Positions 33,001-42,000 of a DNA stretch of 64,000 nt are shown here, one piece after another; position 1 is the first letter of the stretch; each line of letters starts with the position of its first letter. A program made the position numbers. Source of the DNA: Candidatus Bathyarchaeia archaeon (GTDB lineage: Archaea; Thermoproteota; Bathyarchaeia; 40CM-2-53-6); contig JBEKVV010000006.1 in NCBI GenBank assembly GCA_049513715.1, positions 46,582-110,581 on the forward strand. Direction: 5' to 3'.

Positions 33001-36000
33001 GCCCAGTCATCAGAATGATGGGGTTCTCAGGGGCGAAAGGATCAGTTCCCGGCCTGATGAGGTCATACAGATATCGGATACCAAGCCCTTTTCCTCCAAT
33101 GAATTGCTCCGCCCAGTCAAATCGGAGTGGCTCTTCTCGCGTTTCGCCTTTCGTAAGGTCAACGGATAGGATTCTTCCGCAATATGCGCGGCCCGCTTTC
33201 AACATATACATCAGGACATAGTGGTTCGGTTTCCGGTAAAAGAATTCATCGTATTCATAGTATTGTTTGCCAAGAAAGACAGGTTGTCTCGCAGAGAAAA
33301 TGGTCGTGGAGATTAGGAGCGCGCCCGCACGCTTGAAGAGGAGGAAGGTGGGGGGGGGGGTTTACTTTCGTGGGGACAACCTGTTACCTTGCCCAGGATG
33401 CTTGACAACGTGTTGTCTTTGCGACGACGAGCCTAACCCCCTGATGTGGGGGGAAAAATCATCATGGTGGCGTCTTCTGTGACTTCTGCTGAGAACCCGC
33501 CCATCATGGAAACTGACCGACCGTTCAAAAGAAATTGAAGATGAGGTCTTGGGTTGCCAGATTCAGGGTCAAAGAGGTACTCCTTCAGCTTGTCGCCGTG
33601 CCTAGCGGCGAGTGCTTTCAGAATCTCTAGGACTGTGGTGGCGCCTTCAAGCTGCAATGTCTCCTCCCGAACCCCGGCTTTTTCGCGGGCAGCTGCAAGG
33701 AATTTCACTGTCACTTTCAAATCGGAGGTTCCCTTAGCGTAAATTTGCGAGTAATGGTTCCAGCGGTTACCCATAAACAATACCTGCCCGCAGGCGATTG
33801 CTTGTGTTGGGGTCCGGTGTCCGGATGGTCAGAGACAGTCTACGGATTCTATATAACGAACGTTAAATAGCGTACTTGACCGTGCCTGAAACATTCGAGG
33901 ATTCAAACGCTGCTCGGAGTTGACAAACTTAACTTGACAAGGCCGCCATGGACCATGCGCACGAACCTAAGTGAGGCACCGATTTTCGTCTGTTGGGAAA
34001 CAACCAAAGCCTGTTTACTCGCGTGCAGGCATTGTAGGGCTAAAGCAATCAGAAAATCCCTACCAGAAGAACTGAGCCACGAGCAGGGAATAGCCCTAAT
34101 TGACCAATTGGTAGAATTCGGGGAACCATACCCGGCACTGCTCTTGACGGGCGGGGATCCTTTGATGCGTGAGGATTTCTTCGACCTCATCGCACACGCC
34201 AAGAAACTTGGAATCTACGTTGCAGTAGCGGCTAGCGTAACACCAAAACTGAACGAAGATTCAATCAAGCGAATGAAGGAGCTTGACGTTGACATAATGT
34301 CCGTAAGCCTCGACGGATCAACACCCAAAACTCACGATAAACTCCGAGGTGTCCCAGGGACATGGGCCGAGACAGTAAGATCCCTCAAACTTGCTAGGGA
34401 TCGAGGGTTGAGAGCTCAGATCAACACCACAGTAATGCGGAGCAACATTGAGGAGTTGCCTGACATTTTCCACATAGTGAGAGAGGCTGGTTCGGTCGCT
34501 TGGGAAGTTTTCTTCCTCATACGCACAGGCCGAGGCGCGGCCCTAGAGAGTCTCGAACCCGCTGAGTGTGAAGAGGTGATGCATTTCCTCTACGAGGCCG
34601 CTCAGTATGGCATCCCAGTGAGGACTGCGGAGGGCCCACACTTCAGAAGAGTTCGGGCTCAGCGTGAGAGCAATCAGGCCACTCCAAACGGGGAACTTTA
34701 CGAGCGGCTCAAGGCGAAACTATTGGACCTGGAGGGGAAGCCCACCAACCCACCCTCCCTGAAGATGACGCCGACAAGAGATGGCAAAGGCATAGTATTC
34801 ATCGCGCATAATGGGGAAGTACATCCTAGCGGCTTTCTCCCAATCAAATCAGGCAAGGTGCCAGAGGCTCACCTGACCACGATTTACAGAACCAACCCCC
34901 TCTTCGTGTCTCTAAGAGATCCTTCGCAGCTGAAAGGACGTTGTGGAAGATGCGAATACAACACAATTTGTGGCGGCTCAAGGTCAAGAGCATTCGCCGA
35001 ATTCGGCGACCCACTCGGAGAAGACCCGGCCTGCATGTATACCCCCAATTCTGTAGACATGACCCAAGCGATGACCGCATGAGTTGAACAGGAGCCTTTA
35101 GAGCAAGATGCCGATGAATTGGGCAGGTCAACATTGCTGCCGGGAGAATTCTGTGGGTTCTGTGGGCGCGCACTAGAAGCTCCTTTGAAGACATGCAAGA
35201 ACTGTGCCAATACGATGTGCGAGCTTTGCATCGTGGAGCACGAAAGAACATGCCTCGCCAAGCAGAGCTAGTTCTTATGCCTGAATAGAAATCGAATGCG
35301 GTTGGGCTTCGTTCGGGTTCTTAATGCACGAGAAGTATATAACGAACGTTATATAGAACGCCATTCCAGAAAACGAAACGTCGAGTTGACCACTCACGAC
35401 TCCAAACGAATCCTCTGAGCAACACATACTCGAAGTCGCGAAAGCATTGTTCACGGAACGCGGCTTTGCTAATGTGTCAGTTCGCGATATCTGTCGCAAA
35501 GCGCGCGTGACGGCCCCAACAGTCTACTATCATTTCAAAAACAAGGAAGGCCTGTTCGACGCGGTGGTTCGCGAAACAGTAACCATGGCCGAATTCACTT
35601 CTGAATTAGAGCAGGAGTGCGGAAAGGCATTGCACTCCACTGACAAGATTAAGGCTTTCACCGAGATGTATCTGTCTTCGTTTCCTATCAAGCTGATAAA
35701 CACCGGCCTCTACCTCAAAGGCTCAACTGCGCTTGACGCTGTGGGCGCAAGTACGCTGATGTCCGAGTTCGCGCGCATACAATCAATTCTCGTTCAGATA
35801 ATCCGCTCAGGGATTGCGTCTGGGGAACTCAGGAAGACTGACGCTAATATGGCGTCCGAATGCTTACTTGGAATGATGCATAGGTTCGTGTTTCAGCGAA
35901 TCCACTTCCAACGTGGTTACAACCCATCAGAAGCGGCCTCCTACTTGTCTGAGTTCTTCTTGAAGGCCATGAAACGGGCAGAGAGTTGACATCAGTCAGG

Positions 36001-39000: not shown

Positions 39001-42000
39001 TTTCTTGAAATTCCGTACTCGTACCTTGCAATGTCTAGACAATCCGAATACCTCGGGAGCCACCATCATGAAGGACAAGAAGCCCCCACCCATTTTCCGA
39101 GTGATTCGAAGTACCTCTTCGTCTACCCGTTCGTCAAGAAGCGCGAGTGGTATTTCCTACCACATGAAGAAAGAAGACTCATGATGGCCCAACACTTCAA
39201 AATCGGCCACAAATACCCCTCCGTGAAAATCCACACAGGATATTCATTCGGACTCGACGATCAAGAATTCGTGTTGGCCTTCGAAACCGACAAACCTGCA
39301 GATTTCTCTGAACTCGTGATGGAGCTTCGGAGCAGCGAAGCAGGCCGTTACACCGCCCTTGAAACTCCATTGTTCACATGCATAGCGATGGATATCAACG
39401 AAATTCTCAACCTACTCGGATAGAATCCTACACCACTTCAATTTCATTGTGAAACCCTTGACGGTACAACAGTGCACGAAAAAACTACCAAGAAGAACAC
39501 AGCCGTGTAGGCCTTGAATGATCGCTTTCTGAAAGCTTGCAGGCGTCAAGTCGTTGACGAAACACCTGTCTGGTTCATGCGTCAAGCGGGTAGATACCTG
39601 CCGCAGTACAGGAAGATCAGGGAGAAACATGATGTAGTGTCCATTTGCAAAGACCCTGACTTGTGCTCCCAAGTCACCACACTTCCCGTTGACGTGCTCG
39701 GCGTGGATGCGGCCATAATGTTCGCGGACATAATGCTCCCCCTCGAAGGCTTGGGCGTGGAATTTGAAATCAAGGAAGGCGTGGGACCAATTATCCAAAA
39801 ACCGATCCGAGACCTGCAGACAGCTCAGTCCCTAAGTGATCTCGATCCGAAGAACGATGTTCCATTCGTACTCGAAGCAATCAAGGAAACCAAGAAGCGT
39901 TTGGGCGGCCGAGTTCCGCTGATCGGTTTTTGCGGCGCACCGTTCACATTAGCCAGCTACATGATTGAAGGCCGGCCATCTCGAGATTTCGTGAACACGA
40001 AGACCTTGATGTACCGAGATCCGAAAACATGGCAGCTCCTAATGGATGCACTGTCAACTGGAATGTCCCTCTACCTGCAAGCCCAGATTCGTGCAGGTGT
40101 TGACGCCGTACAGCTTTTTGACAGTTGGGTAGGCTGCCTGAGCCCGCAAGATTACCGGGAATACGTGCTCCCGTATTCACGACGGATTATGAAGGACCTT
40201 GAGGGAACAGGTGTGCCACGTATTCATTTTGGGACTGGGACATCAAACTTCCTTGTCGAGATGAAAGAGGCGGGAGGGGATGTATTCAGCATAGATTGGA
40301 GAATCCCGATCGATGTAGCTTGGCAGAGGTTGGGTACGGATGTCGCAATTCAAGGAAATCTGGACCCAACGGTTCTTATGGCTGACCAAACCCTGATCGA
40401 ATCTCAAGCCGCTGCAATCCTTAAGCGGGTCGGGGGGAGGCCCGGGCACATATTCAACTTAGGTCATGGTATGCTGCCAGAAGTCCCAACCGAGAAAGTT
40501 GTAGAGCTAGTGAAATTCGTTCACGAATCAACCAAACGAACATAACTAAAGACCATCCAAGGTGAACAGTCTGTCCAAGACAGCCGTACTTCTCATGGCT
40601 TACGGGACGCCACGCTCAACAGCCGAGATTGAGCCGTACCTCACCAACATACGCAGGGGTCGGAAACCAACCCCACAAGTGGTGGAGGAGCTCAAGGAAC
40701 GGTACCGCAAGATTGGGGGGAAATCACCCCTTCTCGAAATCACAAACAACCAGGCCTCAGCGTTGGAAGTCTCACTGAAAACAGGTGGGCTTGATGCTCG
40801 CGTCTACGTTGGCATGAAGCATTGGCACCCCTACGTCAAAGAAGTCGTTCCGAAAATTGCGGATGATGGCTTCCAACGAATAATCGCCTTGGCCCTAGCA
40901 CCACACTATTCCGAAATCAGCATCGGTGGTTATCGGGAGGCTCTCCAAGAAGCCCTGCGGCAATTCCCGAAAGTGGAGCTCGATTTTATTGAGAGTTGGT
41001 TTGACAACTCATTGTTTCGTAGAGCAGTCGCCGACAAGGTTAAGGAAGGTCTCAAGAAGTTCCCAGCTTCCTCTGAGGTTCAAATGGTGTTCACAGCGCA
41101 CAGTCTCCCGGAACGAATACTACAGAAAAACGACCCATACCCAGACCAACTGCGCTCATCCTGCGAAGGTGTAGCGAGGCTTCTAGATCTCGACGATTGG
41201 GCTTTCGCCTACCAGAGCGCAGGCCAAACAGACGAGAAATGGCTAGGGCCAGACATCCTAAAGTACCTCGGCCAGTTAGACTCCAACGCTAACGCGACAA
41301 GAAACATCTTAGTGATTCCGATCGGTTTCGTGGCGGACCACTTGGAAATCCTGTACGACATCGACATAGAGGCACAAGAATTCGCCAAAACTCACGGGTT
41401 GAACCTCAGCAGAACAGGTTCCCTAAACGCAACACCAACCTTCATCGCAGCACTCGCAGACATAGTCATGAAGCACGTGAACAGGACCAGCTAATCCGTC
41501 AACACTCTCAACGCCGAATTCAAGGAAACTATAACCATCAACGATGAAGGATTTCAATTTCGCCCTAGGCTGCATGAAAGAAGAAATGTGAGAGTTGGCT
41601 AACACTGTGGGGACGCGGTTCTGTTCTGCCGGCTGCATGCCATACAGCGTTGGTGTAAGTAATTACATTCGAGCGATGAGGACTCAACACAGCCCTCGGT
41701 GATCAGACTACAACCTTTGTTACGATCTCTTCTTTATATCCCGTGATTACCCGCCTGTACCCCGACAGCATTTCGTTCAGATCGACATCGCCCGTGTCCA
41801 AGCGAAGTGTTTTTCCTCCTTGAATCGAAGAGAGCTTGTTTCGAGTCGCTATAATCCACACGTTTTCGACGCCGACTTTTCGTATGACTTTGGGGCTGAT
41901 TTGTTGGTTTCCCCTCCCAAAGATGAACCCCTGTCGCCCAATAGGCGAAACAACAATCTTCACTTTCCTCCCCTCAATCACCCTCAGTAACTGCTCCTCG

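Follow-up and report, generated by a model that had tools for sequence, protein, structure and literature searches.

A coproporphyrin-type haem operon and the loss of hemA and hemL in a peat-soil archaeon

In Bacillota and Actinomycetota, the coproporphyrin-dependent (CPD) pathway to haem runs through HemE, CgoX or CgoN, CpfC and ChdC. In a survey of 2,978 archaeal genomes, the route was complete in a single Hydrothermarchaeota genome and in some of the Halobacteria, and nowhere else (PMC11459464). Passages from reviews record AhbD in CPD organisms that have no other Ahb enzymes (PMC13564367), and excerpts on Haloferax volcanii assign ChdC/PitA to aerobic and AhbD to anaerobic growth (PMC5746218). 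The titles of two further papers (Verkamp 1993, Elliott 1993; cited in PMC4206461) indicate that Dpp carries ALA in E. coli and Salmonella. The locus described here, from the genome of a peat-soil archaeon (G000), resembles the CPD pathway of Bacillota and Actinomycetota in grouping the genes for HemE, a CpfC-type ferrochelatase and ChdC with those for HemB, HemC and HemD; it differs in its archaeal host, in the missing hemA and hemL, and in its probable control by a TetR protein through an operator placed over a TATA-like box.

The operon is real, and leads from ALA to haem by the Gram-positive bacterial route, with enzyme activities as predicted from gene identities. Eight co-directional ORFs (+ strand) occupy positions 33934/33955-41494 of the window, the whole 64-kb stretch of DNA that was analysed. 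As a preliminary description had stated, these encode an AhbD-like radical-SAM protein, a TetR regulator, HemC, HemD, HemB, ChdC, HemE and CpfC, and in profile searches all of them matched named families. HemC, the hydroxymethylbilane synthase (36011..36925), scored 339.1 bits on TIGR00212 (cut-off 164); HemD, the uroporphyrinogen-III synthase (36922..37704), 215.1 bits on PF02602; HemB, the porphobilinogen synthase at which ALA enters (37694..38704), 495.3 bits on NF006762 (cut-off 297); and HemE, the uroporphyrinogen decarboxylase (39514..40545), 429.7 bits on TIGR01464 (cut-off 303). ChdC (HemQ), the peroxide-dependent coproheme decarboxylase (38683..39423), reached 199.7 bits on PF06778 and 150.2 bits on the HemQ_actino model, below its cut-off of 235; the nearest solved structures are coproheme decarboxylases (115.5 bits). 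The CpfC-type (HemH) ferrochelatase (40562..41494; PF00762, 294.3 bits; TIGR00109, 254.2 bits, cut-off 124.6) has as its top solved relatives the coproporphyrin ferrochelatases of Bacillus and Listeria (232-216 bits), whereas the human protoporphyrin ferrochelatase reaches about 135 bits; with the Bacillus subtilis enzyme (231.9 bits) the HSLPE and VADHLE motifs align. The spacer between the radical-SAM and TetR genes holds a 50-aa cysteine-rich ORF (three CxxC; 35119..35271, +) whose membership of the operon is uncertain; in most relatives the two genes abut, leaving no spacer for such an ORF. The gene order is not a product of misassembly, because a 7,801-base stretch covering the operon was recovered on a single contig, with 0 differences, in all four peat or wetland runs that were compared, although the DNA may itself derive from these runs.

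Missing enzymes were sought by six-frame search of the G000 assembly (2.79 Mb, 11 contigs, 99.4% complete, 8.79% contamination). The best matches there were 22.9 bits for GluTR (cut-off 209.55; Rossmann part only), 22.4 bits for CgoX (cut-off 97.85; FAD motif only), 11.9 bits for CgoN/DUF1444 and 16.1 bits for HemJ (cut-off 34.2), with no match for CopD; tblastn of the same genome with AhbA/B, SirC, CbiX and CgoX queries from other loci gave nothing at E<=1e-3. The sole TP_methylase match is diphthine synthase (TIGR00522, 188.5 bits). The only oxoamine synthase, a Kbl-like protein, scored 290.5 bits against an ALAS cut-off of 338.55, and five full-length HemL-like paralogues scored 451-364 bits, all below the cut-off of 527.3. 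Thus the observation made in the preliminary description, a coproporphyrin-type operon in an archaeon without the siroheme/Ahb route and with neither GluTR nor CgoX nor siroheme enzymes in its assembly, was confirmed; the interpretation attached to it was supported only in part.

The lack of GluTR is not a trait of the lineage: sister genomes hold both hemA and hemL in the operon. In G047, G050, G040 and G053 the order is rSAM-TetR-GluTR-HemC-HemD-HemB-ChdC-HemL-HemE-HemH, so that hemA separates TetR from hemC, and hemL separates chdC from hemE; at these positions in G000, hemC starts 21 bp past TetR and hemE 90 bp past chdC. G049 retains a relic amounting to 17% of HemL between chdC and hemE. 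Because congeners keep both genes inside the same operon, hemA and hemL were part of the operon ancestral to the genus as well, and both were lost secondarily. GluTR is missing from 7 of the 18 ChdC-positive genomes of the genus (G000, G038, G043, G045, G046, G048 and G049), and all seven also lack the operonic HemL orthologue; the best HemL-like gene of G000 is 38% identical to operonic HemL, against 57-77% for the other operon proteins. The worry that GluTR had fallen into an assembly gap is answered by the near-closed assemblies of G045 (100% complete, 3 contigs) and G046 (98%, 5 contigs), which lack it as well. In a FastTree phylogeny of concatenated HemC/D/B-ChdC-HemE-HemH, hemA-less operons fall at four places, namely G000 by itself, a clade supported at 1.0, G038 and G049 (supports 0.99), so that the losses are polyphyletic and comprise at least four events.

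The genes left in hemA-less operons look selected, with dN/dS of 0.05-0.26 between hemA-less genomes (G043/G045, G045/G048) and of 0.15-0.31 for G043/G046, except for HemD (0.88). However, the GluTR of G041 branches as vertical descent predicts, so within the clade of G045 and G046 the loss may be only recent, and low values there need not mean life without hemA. Genes are split in three of these genomes (HemB in G046; TetR, HemB and HemE in G048; TetR and HemD in G049), which in G046 and G048 could be decay or assembly error.

Palindromic copies of an operator, ATAACGAACGTTA, precede both the radical-SAM and the TetR genes. The first (33853..33865, +) lies within TCTATATAACGAACGTTAAATAGC, about 90 nt 5' of the radical-SAM start, with TATA-box-like flanks; the second (35339..35351, +) lies within AGTATATAACGAACGTTATATAGA, about 100 nt 5' of the first canonical TetR start. 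The exact 13-mer has two copies in the window, TAACGNNCGTTA sites number only four in the whole G000 genome, and in 13 of 16 loci of the genus the box precedes rSAM, TetR or both. The genes would form two transcription units, rSAM and TetR-hemCDB-chdC-hemEH, each with the palindrome over a TATA-like box, and, as they share this operator, the two are most likely under repression by TetR. The regulator itself (35447..35989, +; PF00440, TetR_N, 55.9 bits) matches only from profile position 8; its frame is open from 35390, and comparison with the N-termini of relatives places the ancestral ATG at 35396-35398, where G000 has ACG. This loss of the ancestral start codon counts against the explanation that we favour.

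On balance, and with modest confidence, we think that these observations describe a TetR-controlled haem regulon serving a coproporphyrin route, in which hemA and hemL have been lost recurrently and which is fed by imported ALA. G000 and several sister lineages would independently have deleted exactly these two genes while keeping the others of the operon, and the truncated pathway would most likely draw ALA from the peat community. Because the same two genes were lost repeatedly and the rest of the operon kept, scavenging of ALA is more likely than an unrecognised ALA synthase. Scavenging of haem or its precursors seems common in the family, since COX1 is present in 47 of 59 family genomes, some of them without ChdC or GluTR.

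A candidate carrier of ALA is an ABC importer of the Dpp/Opp type. G000, G045 and G046 share the order Lhr-[SBP5-permease-permease-ATPase-ATPase]-x108-uL2, and at that same site G041, the sister of G045, has Lhr-[HemL-GluTR]-x108-uL2; importer and hemA-hemL are thus swapped at one locus. Orthologues of the importer's binding protein (at least 70% identity) are present in 6 of the 7 hemA-less genomes, G038 having only a 51% relative, and also in the hemA-positive G044, G039 and G054 and the haem-less G051. A single swapped locus, together with co-occurrence that is imperfect, points weakly to a link between this transporter and ALA. Like the Dpp of E. coli and Salmonella, it is a five-component system with a family-5 SBP and oligo_HPY ATPases; however, its binding protein reaches only 118 bits against the DppA model (cut-off 1005), the GsiB and NikA models give slightly more, and none of the substrate-specific models fits it. 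The operator box was not found 5' of the importer in G000.

The preliminary description had ALA made by an unrecognised enzyme, which would render hemA and hemL redundant; a HemL-like class-III aminotransferase acting on, for example, 4,5-dioxovalerate, or the Kbl-like oxoamine synthase acting with succinyl-CoA, could be proposed. We regard such an enzyme as unlikely. Redundancy would predict repeated loss of the same two genes, and G054 and G056 keep hemA without a HemL orthologue, suggesting that HemL can be replaced by a paralogue; at 451 bits, the best of the five HemL-like paralogues exceeds the 398-bit cut-off of the subfamily model NF000818, and the Kbl-like gene reaches 290 bits on the ALAS model. 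However, the best paralogue has 77-86% orthologues in G037 and G057, which lack haem genes, and in the hemA-positive G056, while the Kbl-like gene, below the ALAS cut-off, is single-copy in 21 of 23 genomes of the genus regardless of their hemA or ChdC state. Neither varies with the haem genes, none of the candidates shows linkage to the operon or bears its operator, and the enzyme is not needed if ALA is imported. To our knowledge, there is no route to glutamate-1-semialdehyde without GluTR.

It is quite improbable that the truncated operon is a decaying remnant, its genes heading for loss and the oxidases served by imported haem. The split genes and the lost TetR start codon could be read in this way, as could the many family genomes with COX1 and without ChdC or GluTR (such as G013, G015 and G016, 93-95% complete), and Dpp is also a haem importer in E. 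coli according to the title of Letoffe 2006 (cited in PMC4206461). Yet none of the seven biosynthetic ORFs is broken in G000, G045, G043, G041 and G038, dN/dS is low in most comparisons, and four runs, each assembled on its own, show no difference in sequence; moreover, at least four losses removed this same pair of genes and none of the other seven from those operons, unlike random decay.

In the pathway that we propose, HemB, HemC and HemD would yield uroporphyrinogen III, HemE would convert it to coproporphyrinogen III, and, after oxidation to coproporphyrin III, CpfC would insert iron; coproheme would then become haem b by the action of ChdC with peroxide or oxygen, or of an AhbD-type radical-SAM enzyme without. 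The oxidation step has no assigned enzyme and is possibly non-enzymatic: unlike the CPD pathway of Bacillota and Actinomycetota, CgoX was found in 0 of 59 family genomes and CgoN was not found in G000. Of the two steps previously left unassigned, coproporphyrinogen oxidation remains so throughout the family, whereas the ALA step is more likely explained by loss. Homologues of COX1 and CydA in G000 agree with the haem-copper and bd oxidases named earlier as consumers.

The radical-SAM/SPASM protein (33955..35082, +) belongs to TIGR04053 (488.8 bits, cut-off 395); its ORF opens at a TTG at 33934, with an in-frame ATG at 33955, and the CX3CX2C motif and C-terminal cysteines are invariant. It looks like an AhbD-type, oxygen-independent coproheme decarboxylase (haem synthase). 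Like AhbD, it is a radical-SAM/SPASM protein that matches the AhbD model over its full length and is encoded in a haem operon with ChdC, and in the Ahb clusters of other archaea the place of AhbD is taken by its family; it differs in belonging to a sister family, scoring only 289.7 bits on the AhbD model TIGR04545 (cut-off 500). In three Thermoproteota loci the genes run TIGR04053 rSAM, AhbA/B fusion, AhbC-like rSAM, SirC and then GluTR-HemB-HemL-HemC, and in a Thermoplasmata locus the TIGR04053 member adjoins an AhbC-like gene. This argument is positional and not exclusive, because three genomes of Thermoproteota encode a third rSAM/SPASM paralogue, unclassified, that scores on the AhbD model as well as the TIGR04053 member does. 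Haem genes flank 17 of 80 loci homologous to the radical-SAM gene.

The preliminary description gave this protein the missing oxidation, as an oxygen-independent coproporphyrinogen III oxidase replacing CgoX/CgoN and leaving the last step to ChdC alone. We find this very doubtful, even though CgoX, CgoN, HemJ and CopD homologues all went unfound in G000, the gene carries the operon's operator, its score is below the AhbD equivalog cut-off, and within the genus TIGR04053 exceeds its cut-off in exactly the 18 ChdC-positive genomes. In genus g2, ChdC-HemE-CpfC is present in 15 of 22 genomes, TIGR04053 in 0 of 22, and CgoX is likewise missing from those with the three genes, so oxidation there proceeds without the radical-SAM enzyme. 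The family also adjoins AhbA/B and AhbC in clusters of the siroheme route, which does not pass through coproporphyrinogen, and the bacterial operons L050 and L110 carry CgoX along with the rSAM gene. We know of no radical-SAM reaction that performs a six-electron porphyrinogen oxidation. That hemA and hemL are present after all, in unassembled or mis-binned DNA of a contaminated 11-contig bin, is extremely unlikely, as the TetR/hemC and chdC/hemE junctions are contiguous in four of four runs, a G000 contig runs across the alternative site used by G041 and has the transporter there, and neither G045 nor G046 has GluTR or a HemL orthologue.

Of the 59 family genomes, 34 have ChdC. Names given to homologues point to the Bathyarchaeia, and among sampled genomes of the class HemH-type ferrochelatase was found in 7 of 161 genomes, all in this family, and in 0 of 144 genomes from 30 other families. 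A Ktedonobacteria operon with the same gene set and the same rSAM-TetR adjacency fits acquisition of the operon from bacteria, and the lateral origin proposed earlier thereby gains support. Loci L115 and L122 include a small CopD-family membrane protein, a candidate oxidase that G000 lacks. Recurrent loss of hemA and hemL, like the TetR operator, is particular to this genus.

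The eight-ORF haem operon (window 33934-41494, forward strand) gave family profile matches for a radical-SAM enzyme (rSAM), a TetR regulator, HemC, HemD, HemB, ChdC, HemE and a HemH-type ferrochelatase, in agreement with the gene content reported in a preliminary description of this DNA. Three of these products supply what the coproporphyrin-dependent (CPD) pathway requires: HemE (TIGR01464, 429.7 bits against a cut-off of 302.95), the CpfC-type ferrochelatase (TIGR00109, 254.2 bits against 124.6) and ChdC (PF06778, 199.7 bits), which has coproheme decarboxylases as its best solved relatives and stays under the threshold of each of the two NCBIfam equivalog models (150.2 bits for a threshold of 235, 86.6 for one of 253). 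The ferrochelatase is predicted to be of the CpfC type: among solved structures it comes nearest to Bacillus and Listeria coproporphyrin ferrochelatases (232-216 bits, versus about 135 bits for human protoporphyrin ferrochelatase). Misassembly does not account for the gene order, since 4/4 peat/wetland sequencing runs, from which the DNA may itself derive, yielded the whole 7.8-kb stretch in a single contig with zero differences; among the runs listed for the locus none was of RNA. Neither flank is related to the operon: upstream, on the opposite strand, lie an aldehyde:ferredoxin oxidoreductase and a MoaD/SAMP-like gene, and downstream is a convergent NAD-kinase-like gene. The latter (41703-43052, reverse strand) encodes a 449-aa protein without an NCBIfam match, whose N- and C-terminal domains are separated by a long insert; relatives do not conserve it at this position and have a 4HBT thioesterase after HemH. 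Likely consumers of haem are present as previously described, namely homologues of COX1 (contig 9, 216.6 bits) and CydA (202.6 bits).

Six-frame profile searches of the genome under study (G000; 11 contigs, 99.4% complete, 8.79% contamination) recovered no known entry into the pathway. For the C5 route, glutamyl-tRNA reductase (GluTR, the hemA product) reached at best 22.9 bits against 209.55; models of glutamate-1-semialdehyde aminomutase (HemL) reached 451.2 bits against the TIGR00713 cut-off of 527.3, with one paralogue over the looser NF000818 subfamily cut-off, and no orthologue of the operonic HemL of congeners was found in G000. For the Shemin route, the only oxoamine synthase in G000, which is Kbl-like, scored 290.5 bits against 338.55 on TIGR01821. 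The siroheme/Ahb route fared likewise: the sole TP_methylase in G000 is diphthine synthase, no uroporphyrinogen methyltransferase was found, and tblastn of G000 with AhbA/B (two queries), SirC, CbiX and CgoX from other loci returned nothing at E<=1e-3. The absences of GluTR, CgoX and the siroheme enzymes thus hold, as do the operon and its coproporphyrin-type reading; two further proposals found no support, namely that 5-aminolevulinic acid (ALA) is made by an unrecognised enzyme and that the rSAM is the missing coproporphyrinogen oxidase.

Lack of GluTR does not characterise the lineage: congeners carry hemA and hemL in the same operon. ChdC occurs in 34 and GluTR in 28 of the 59 genomes of the family (G000 included). 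In four congeners (G047, G050, G040 and G053) the order is rSAM-TetR-GluTR-HemC-HemD-HemB-ChdC-HemL-HemE-HemH, and the positions held there by hemA and hemL are reduced in G000 to spacers of 21 bp and 90 bp, respectively. Within the genus, 11/18 ChdC-positive genomes encode GluTR and 7/18 do not (G000, G038, G043, G045, G046, G048 and G049), among them assemblies that are 100% complete in 3 contigs (G045) and 98% complete in 5 contigs (G046). Only 9/23 genus genomes have an orthologue of operonic HemL, and 0/7 of those lacking GluTR do; the best HemL-like gene of G000 is only 38% identical to it, compared with 57-77% for the other operon proteins, and in G049 a fragment covering 17% of the HemL length persists between chdC and hemE. 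G054 (locus L151) and G056 (L043) retain hemA in the operon and have no operonic-hemL orthologue anywhere in the genome; here a HemL-like paralogue may substitute, or conversion of glutamate-1-semialdehyde may be spontaneous.

In order to place these absences, a FastTree phylogeny was computed from concatenated HemC, HemD, HemB, ChdC, HemE and HemH of 21 taxa, rooted on a second genus of the family (g2) plus locus L122, and leaving out G055, G039 and the ChdC-less genomes for want of a contiguous operon. The tree splits the hemA-less operons into four placements: G000 by itself; a clade uniting G043, G046, G048, G041 and G045 (support 1.0); G038 as sister to a hemA-positive clade (0.996); and G049 as sister to G044 plus G052 (0.993). 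The absence of GluTR in G000 is thus a secondary loss, one of at least four within the genus. G041, nested in the second of these placements, carries a hemA-hemL pair at another site, and its GluTR branches as vertical descent predicts; since an inherited GluTR survives inside a hemA-less clade, there may have been up to six independent losses.

The remaining operon genes appear to be maintained, with dN/dS values between hemA-less genomes of 0.05-0.26 (G043/G045 and G045/G048) and 0.15-0.31 (G043/G046, except HemD at 0.88, from very few changes), some of this divergence possibly being older than the loss of hemA, given the vertical GluTR of G041. Haem synthesis is generally regarded as all or nothing; the loss of the same two entry genes at least four times in one genus, with the other seven intact, suggests that members of peat communities share and exchange ALA. 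It also cautions annotation pipelines that "GluTR absent" in one bin can denote a recent loss and not a lineage trait. Several hemA-less operons contain split genes (HemB in G046, L038; TetR, HemB and HemE in G048, L145; TetR and HemD in G049, L146), reflecting either decay or assembly errors. In G044 (L042:10258-11769), and likewise in G052 (L149), HemD and ChdC form one 504-aa ORF (HEM4 at residues 32-259, Chlor_dismutase at 306-493), the operon lacks HemB, and two inserted genes, LarA-like and 3-hydroxyacyl-CoA dehydrogenase, separate rSAM from TetR.

As to how G000 obtains ALA, uptake is the reading that we somewhat favor. G041 has its relocated hemA-hemL pair between an Lhr helicase gene and a small ORF adjoining ribosomal protein uL2; in G000, G045 and G046 this same site is occupied by a Dpp/Opp-type ABC importer of five genes. 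In G000 (contig C1, 667715-673338, outside the window) all components of such a system are present: a family-5 binding protein, two permeases and two oligo_HPY ATPases. Dpp reportedly imports ALA in E. coli and Salmonella, and is said to import haem as well. Orthologues of the binding protein at >=70% identity occur in 6/7 hemA-less genomes, the seventh (G038) having just a 51% relative, and in 2/11 genomes positive for both hemA and ChdC (G044, and fragments in G054; G052 has a pseudogene); they are also found, at >=70%, in G039 and G051. This co-occurrence is suggestive and imperfect. The binding protein fitted no substrate-specific model, and a scan of the G000 genome found no copy of the operator box described below upstream of the importer. 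On the strength of the locus swap and the partial co-occurrence, we regard this importer as a possible, though not a probable, ALA carrier; it provides a concrete candidate for testing. Many family genomes encode COX1 and neither ChdC nor GluTR (G013, G015, G016, G002 and others, at 93-95% completeness), and are likely haem scavengers, so that scavenging of haem or its precursors seems to be a habit of the family.

Endogenous synthesis of ALA by an enzyme not yet recognised, as proposed earlier, fared less well. The Kbl-like gene, below the ALAS cut-off, is single-copy in 21/23 genus genomes regardless of their haem genes, and orthologues of the best HemL-like paralogue, at 77-86%, exist in the haem-less G037 and G057; among sequence matches, no ALA-making alternative stands out in G000. 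A full scheme, in which members of this peat genus would be ALA auxotrophs that repeatedly exchanged hemA-hemL for Dpp/Opp-type uptake at one site, would drive the rest of the coproporphyrin pathway with cross-fed ALA, and would, across the family, oxidize coproporphyrinogen with an enzyme of an undescribed kind, is unlikely to be correct in all its parts.

The rSAM (ORF from 33934, in-frame ATG at 33955, forward strand) is a radical-SAM/SPASM protein whose TIGR04053 match is full-length, spanning positions 2-366 of the 366 in the profile, and scores 488.8 bits, above the cut-off of 395. It resembles AhbD in its motif cysteines and its haem-gene context, but reaches only 289.7 bits on the AhbD model TIGR04545, against an equivalog cut-off of 500. 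The CX3CX2C motif (C27, C31, C34) and the SPASM cysteines C337, C340, C346 and C367 were invariant in alignments of 30 and of 8 homologues. A homologous-locus search with the eight-sequence alignment gathered 80 loci, of which 17 have haem genes in the flank; homologues at 44-55% identity came from Actinomycetota, Chloroflexota, Deinococcota, Alicyclobacillaceae, Thermoproteota and Thermoplasmata. Three Thermoproteota loci have, in this order, a TIGR04053 member (500-515 bits), an AhbA/B fusion, an AhbC-like rSAM, a SirC-like gene and GluTR-HemB-HemL-HemC, and at a Thermoplasmata locus an AhbC-like gene abuts the TIGR04053 member. In these four archaeal loci, TIGR04053 members hold the AhbD position of a pathway that has no coproporphyrinogen intermediate. 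In the genus of G000, TIGR04053 exceeds its cut-off in exactly the 18 ChdC-positive genomes; in g2, ChdC-HemE-CpfC is found in 15/22 genomes and TIGR04053 in 0/22.

Because of this AhbD position, the g2 pattern, the presence of CgoX in bacterial operons that also contain the rSAM homologue (L050, L110), and literature on AhbD in CPD organisms, we read the rSAM as probably an AhbD-type coproheme decarboxylase, a reading that draws also on its own place beside ChdC/CpfC. AhbD is already described from CPD organisms that lack the rest of the Ahb enzymes (PMC13564367), and Haloferax volcanii has been shown to use ChdC/PitA under aerobic and AhbD under anaerobic conditions (PMC5746218). That the rSAM is instead the missing oxygen-independent coproporphyrinogen oxidase is, on the same evidence, very improbable. 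A PDB search with the rSAM found no solved AhbD relative, its best matches being SkfB and PqqE (61-57 bits), and no paper on TIGR04053 was found. The same three Thermoproteota genomes encode a third, unclassified rSAM/SPASM paralogue with an N-terminal extension and an AhbD-model score similar to that of their TIGR04053 member. Its G000 counterpart (contig C2, 504859-505938; L027:1204-2598), with an extension of about 100 aa, scores 207-224 bits alike on the NirJ2, TIGR04053 and AhbD models and has relatives in Thermoproteota (L155-L157); it is a poor AhbD candidate, since it is also present in haem-less genomes of genus g5. The rSAM gene adjoining the g2 operon belongs to the AmmeMemoRadiSam system (TIGR04337) and is unrelated.

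With HemE, CpfC and ChdC in place, the CPD step for which no enzyme was found in G000 is coproporphyrinogen III oxidation. CgoX (TIGR00562) reached at best 22.4 bits against 97.85 in the six-frame search of G000 and was found in 0/59 family genomes; within G000, Amino_oxidase (PF01593) matches are confined to N-terminal FAD motifs, CgoN/YtpQ (DUF1444) reached 11.9 bits at best, HemJ (PF03653) gave two weak matches (16.1 and 12.8 bits against 34.2), and CopD gave none. A 155-aa membrane ORF with a weak PF03653 match (contig C4, 125020-125487) occurs in 8/59 family genomes and does not track ChdC; a protein of the Calditenuis cluster described below matches it at E 0.025, and DUF4149 at just E 0.011. 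HemG-type flavodoxin is found in 15/59 genomes, ChdC-less ones included, and scores just 27.5 bits in G000. Both this flavodoxin and the membrane ORF were discarded as oxidase candidates. Conversion of coproporphyrinogen III to coproporphyrin III may thus be either non-enzymatic under micro-oxic conditions or the work of an undescribed enzyme; the latter is proposed family-wide because CgoX, CgoN, HemJ/CopD and HemG do not track the pathway, leaving porphyrinogen oxidation without a known enzyme across 34 genomes.

Haem clusters elsewhere differ at this point. Those of a "Nitrososphaerota" MAG (L122:11004-11582, 35.1 bits) and a Thermoplasmatales MAG (L115:14380-14880, 33.8 bits) each encode a small CopD-family membrane protein next to rSAM or HemL, whereas G000 has none; the two proteins are 38% identical to each other and could be HemJ-like porphyrinogen oxidases. 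The cluster of Candidatus Calditenuis (L079:3307-12756) comprises GluTR-HemC-HemD-HemB-HemL-HemE, a 160-aa membrane ORF, a TIGR04053-like rSAM, a CbiX-type chelatase and a luciferase-like oxidoreductase, and so combines HemE with CbiX instead of HemH.

The TetR regulator has an N-terminal HTH domain (PF00440, 55.9 bits), and the putative TetR target DNA of the haem operon is TATAACGAACGTTAWATA. The window holds two exact copies of a 13-mer, ATAACGAACGTTA, both with TATA-like AT-rich flanks: one at 33853-33865, 90 nt upstream of the rSAM start, and one at 35339-35351, which precedes the first canonical start codon of TetR by about 100 nt. Its core, TAACGNNCGTTA, has four sites in the whole G000 genome, and the other two lack AT-rich flanks. 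The box was found in 13/16 genus loci as well as at both G000 sites, and in 0/3 g2 loci, L122 or L050. In relatives it lies 5' of rSAM where rSAM and TetR abut and 5' of both where inserted genes separate them; since it precedes both separated genes, the rSAM would remain in the same regulon even when displaced. We infer that TetR represses both units through this operator, with a tetrapyrrole as a putative ligand; the conserved pair offers a handle on the regulation of haem synthesis in an archaeon. The ATG start of TetR in relatives aligns with ACG in G000 (35396-35398), the frame being open and conserved from 35390, and the first ATG/GTG/TTG is a TTG at 35447, within helix 1 of the HTH; the sequence is the same in four separate assemblies. 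G000 TetR would therefore either start at a non-canonical codon or lack about 17 residues of helix 1. The 365-bp spacer between rSAM and TetR, absent in most relatives, holds a 50-aa ORF (35119-35271, forward strand) with three CxxC pairs resembling a zinc ribbon. An Rfam search of the window gave no match.

HemH-type ferrochelatase was detected in 7/161 sampled genomes of the class (>=80% complete), all from the family of G000, and in 0/144 genomes of 30 other families; among 14 control genomes it was confined to bacteria. A Ktedonobacteria locus reads CgoX-MerR-GluTR-ChdC-HemE-HemC-HemD-HemB-HemL-rSAM-TetR, and the rSAM-TetR pair that it has in common with G000 fits a bacterial origin of the operon. 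In a survey of 2,978 archaeal genomes, a complete CPD route was reported from no archaea other than some Halobacteria and a single Hydrothermarchaeota genome (PMC11459464). The present operon adds a well-sampled family to the small number of archaea in which a coproporphyrin-type route is seen. No title or abstract opening reporting such haem synthesis in Bathyarchaeia was found, nor any paper joining Bathyarchaeia, haem-copper oxidase and ferrochelatase. The operon as such belongs to a type already known; what sets it apart are the recurrent loss of hemA and hemL, the exchange of cassettes at one site, an oxidase missing across the family, and the operator.

Elsewhere in the window, an APC-family amino-acid permease gene lies directly upstream of a HemL-like class-III aminotransferase gene (1043-4235; 379.6 bits on the HemL model, one of five), and a second set at 23512-30378 comprises permease-like, class-III aminotransferase, aldehyde dehydrogenase and peptidase S58 genes. 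The 2 kb with the highest G+C content in the window (0.577, against about 0.50) contain a 490-aa ORF (18052-19524, forward strand) that has no Pfam match at E<=1e-8. The large subunit of ribonucleotide reductase (52803-56327, reverse strand; 1174 aa) is interrupted by an intein (Intein_splicing, residues 450-681).
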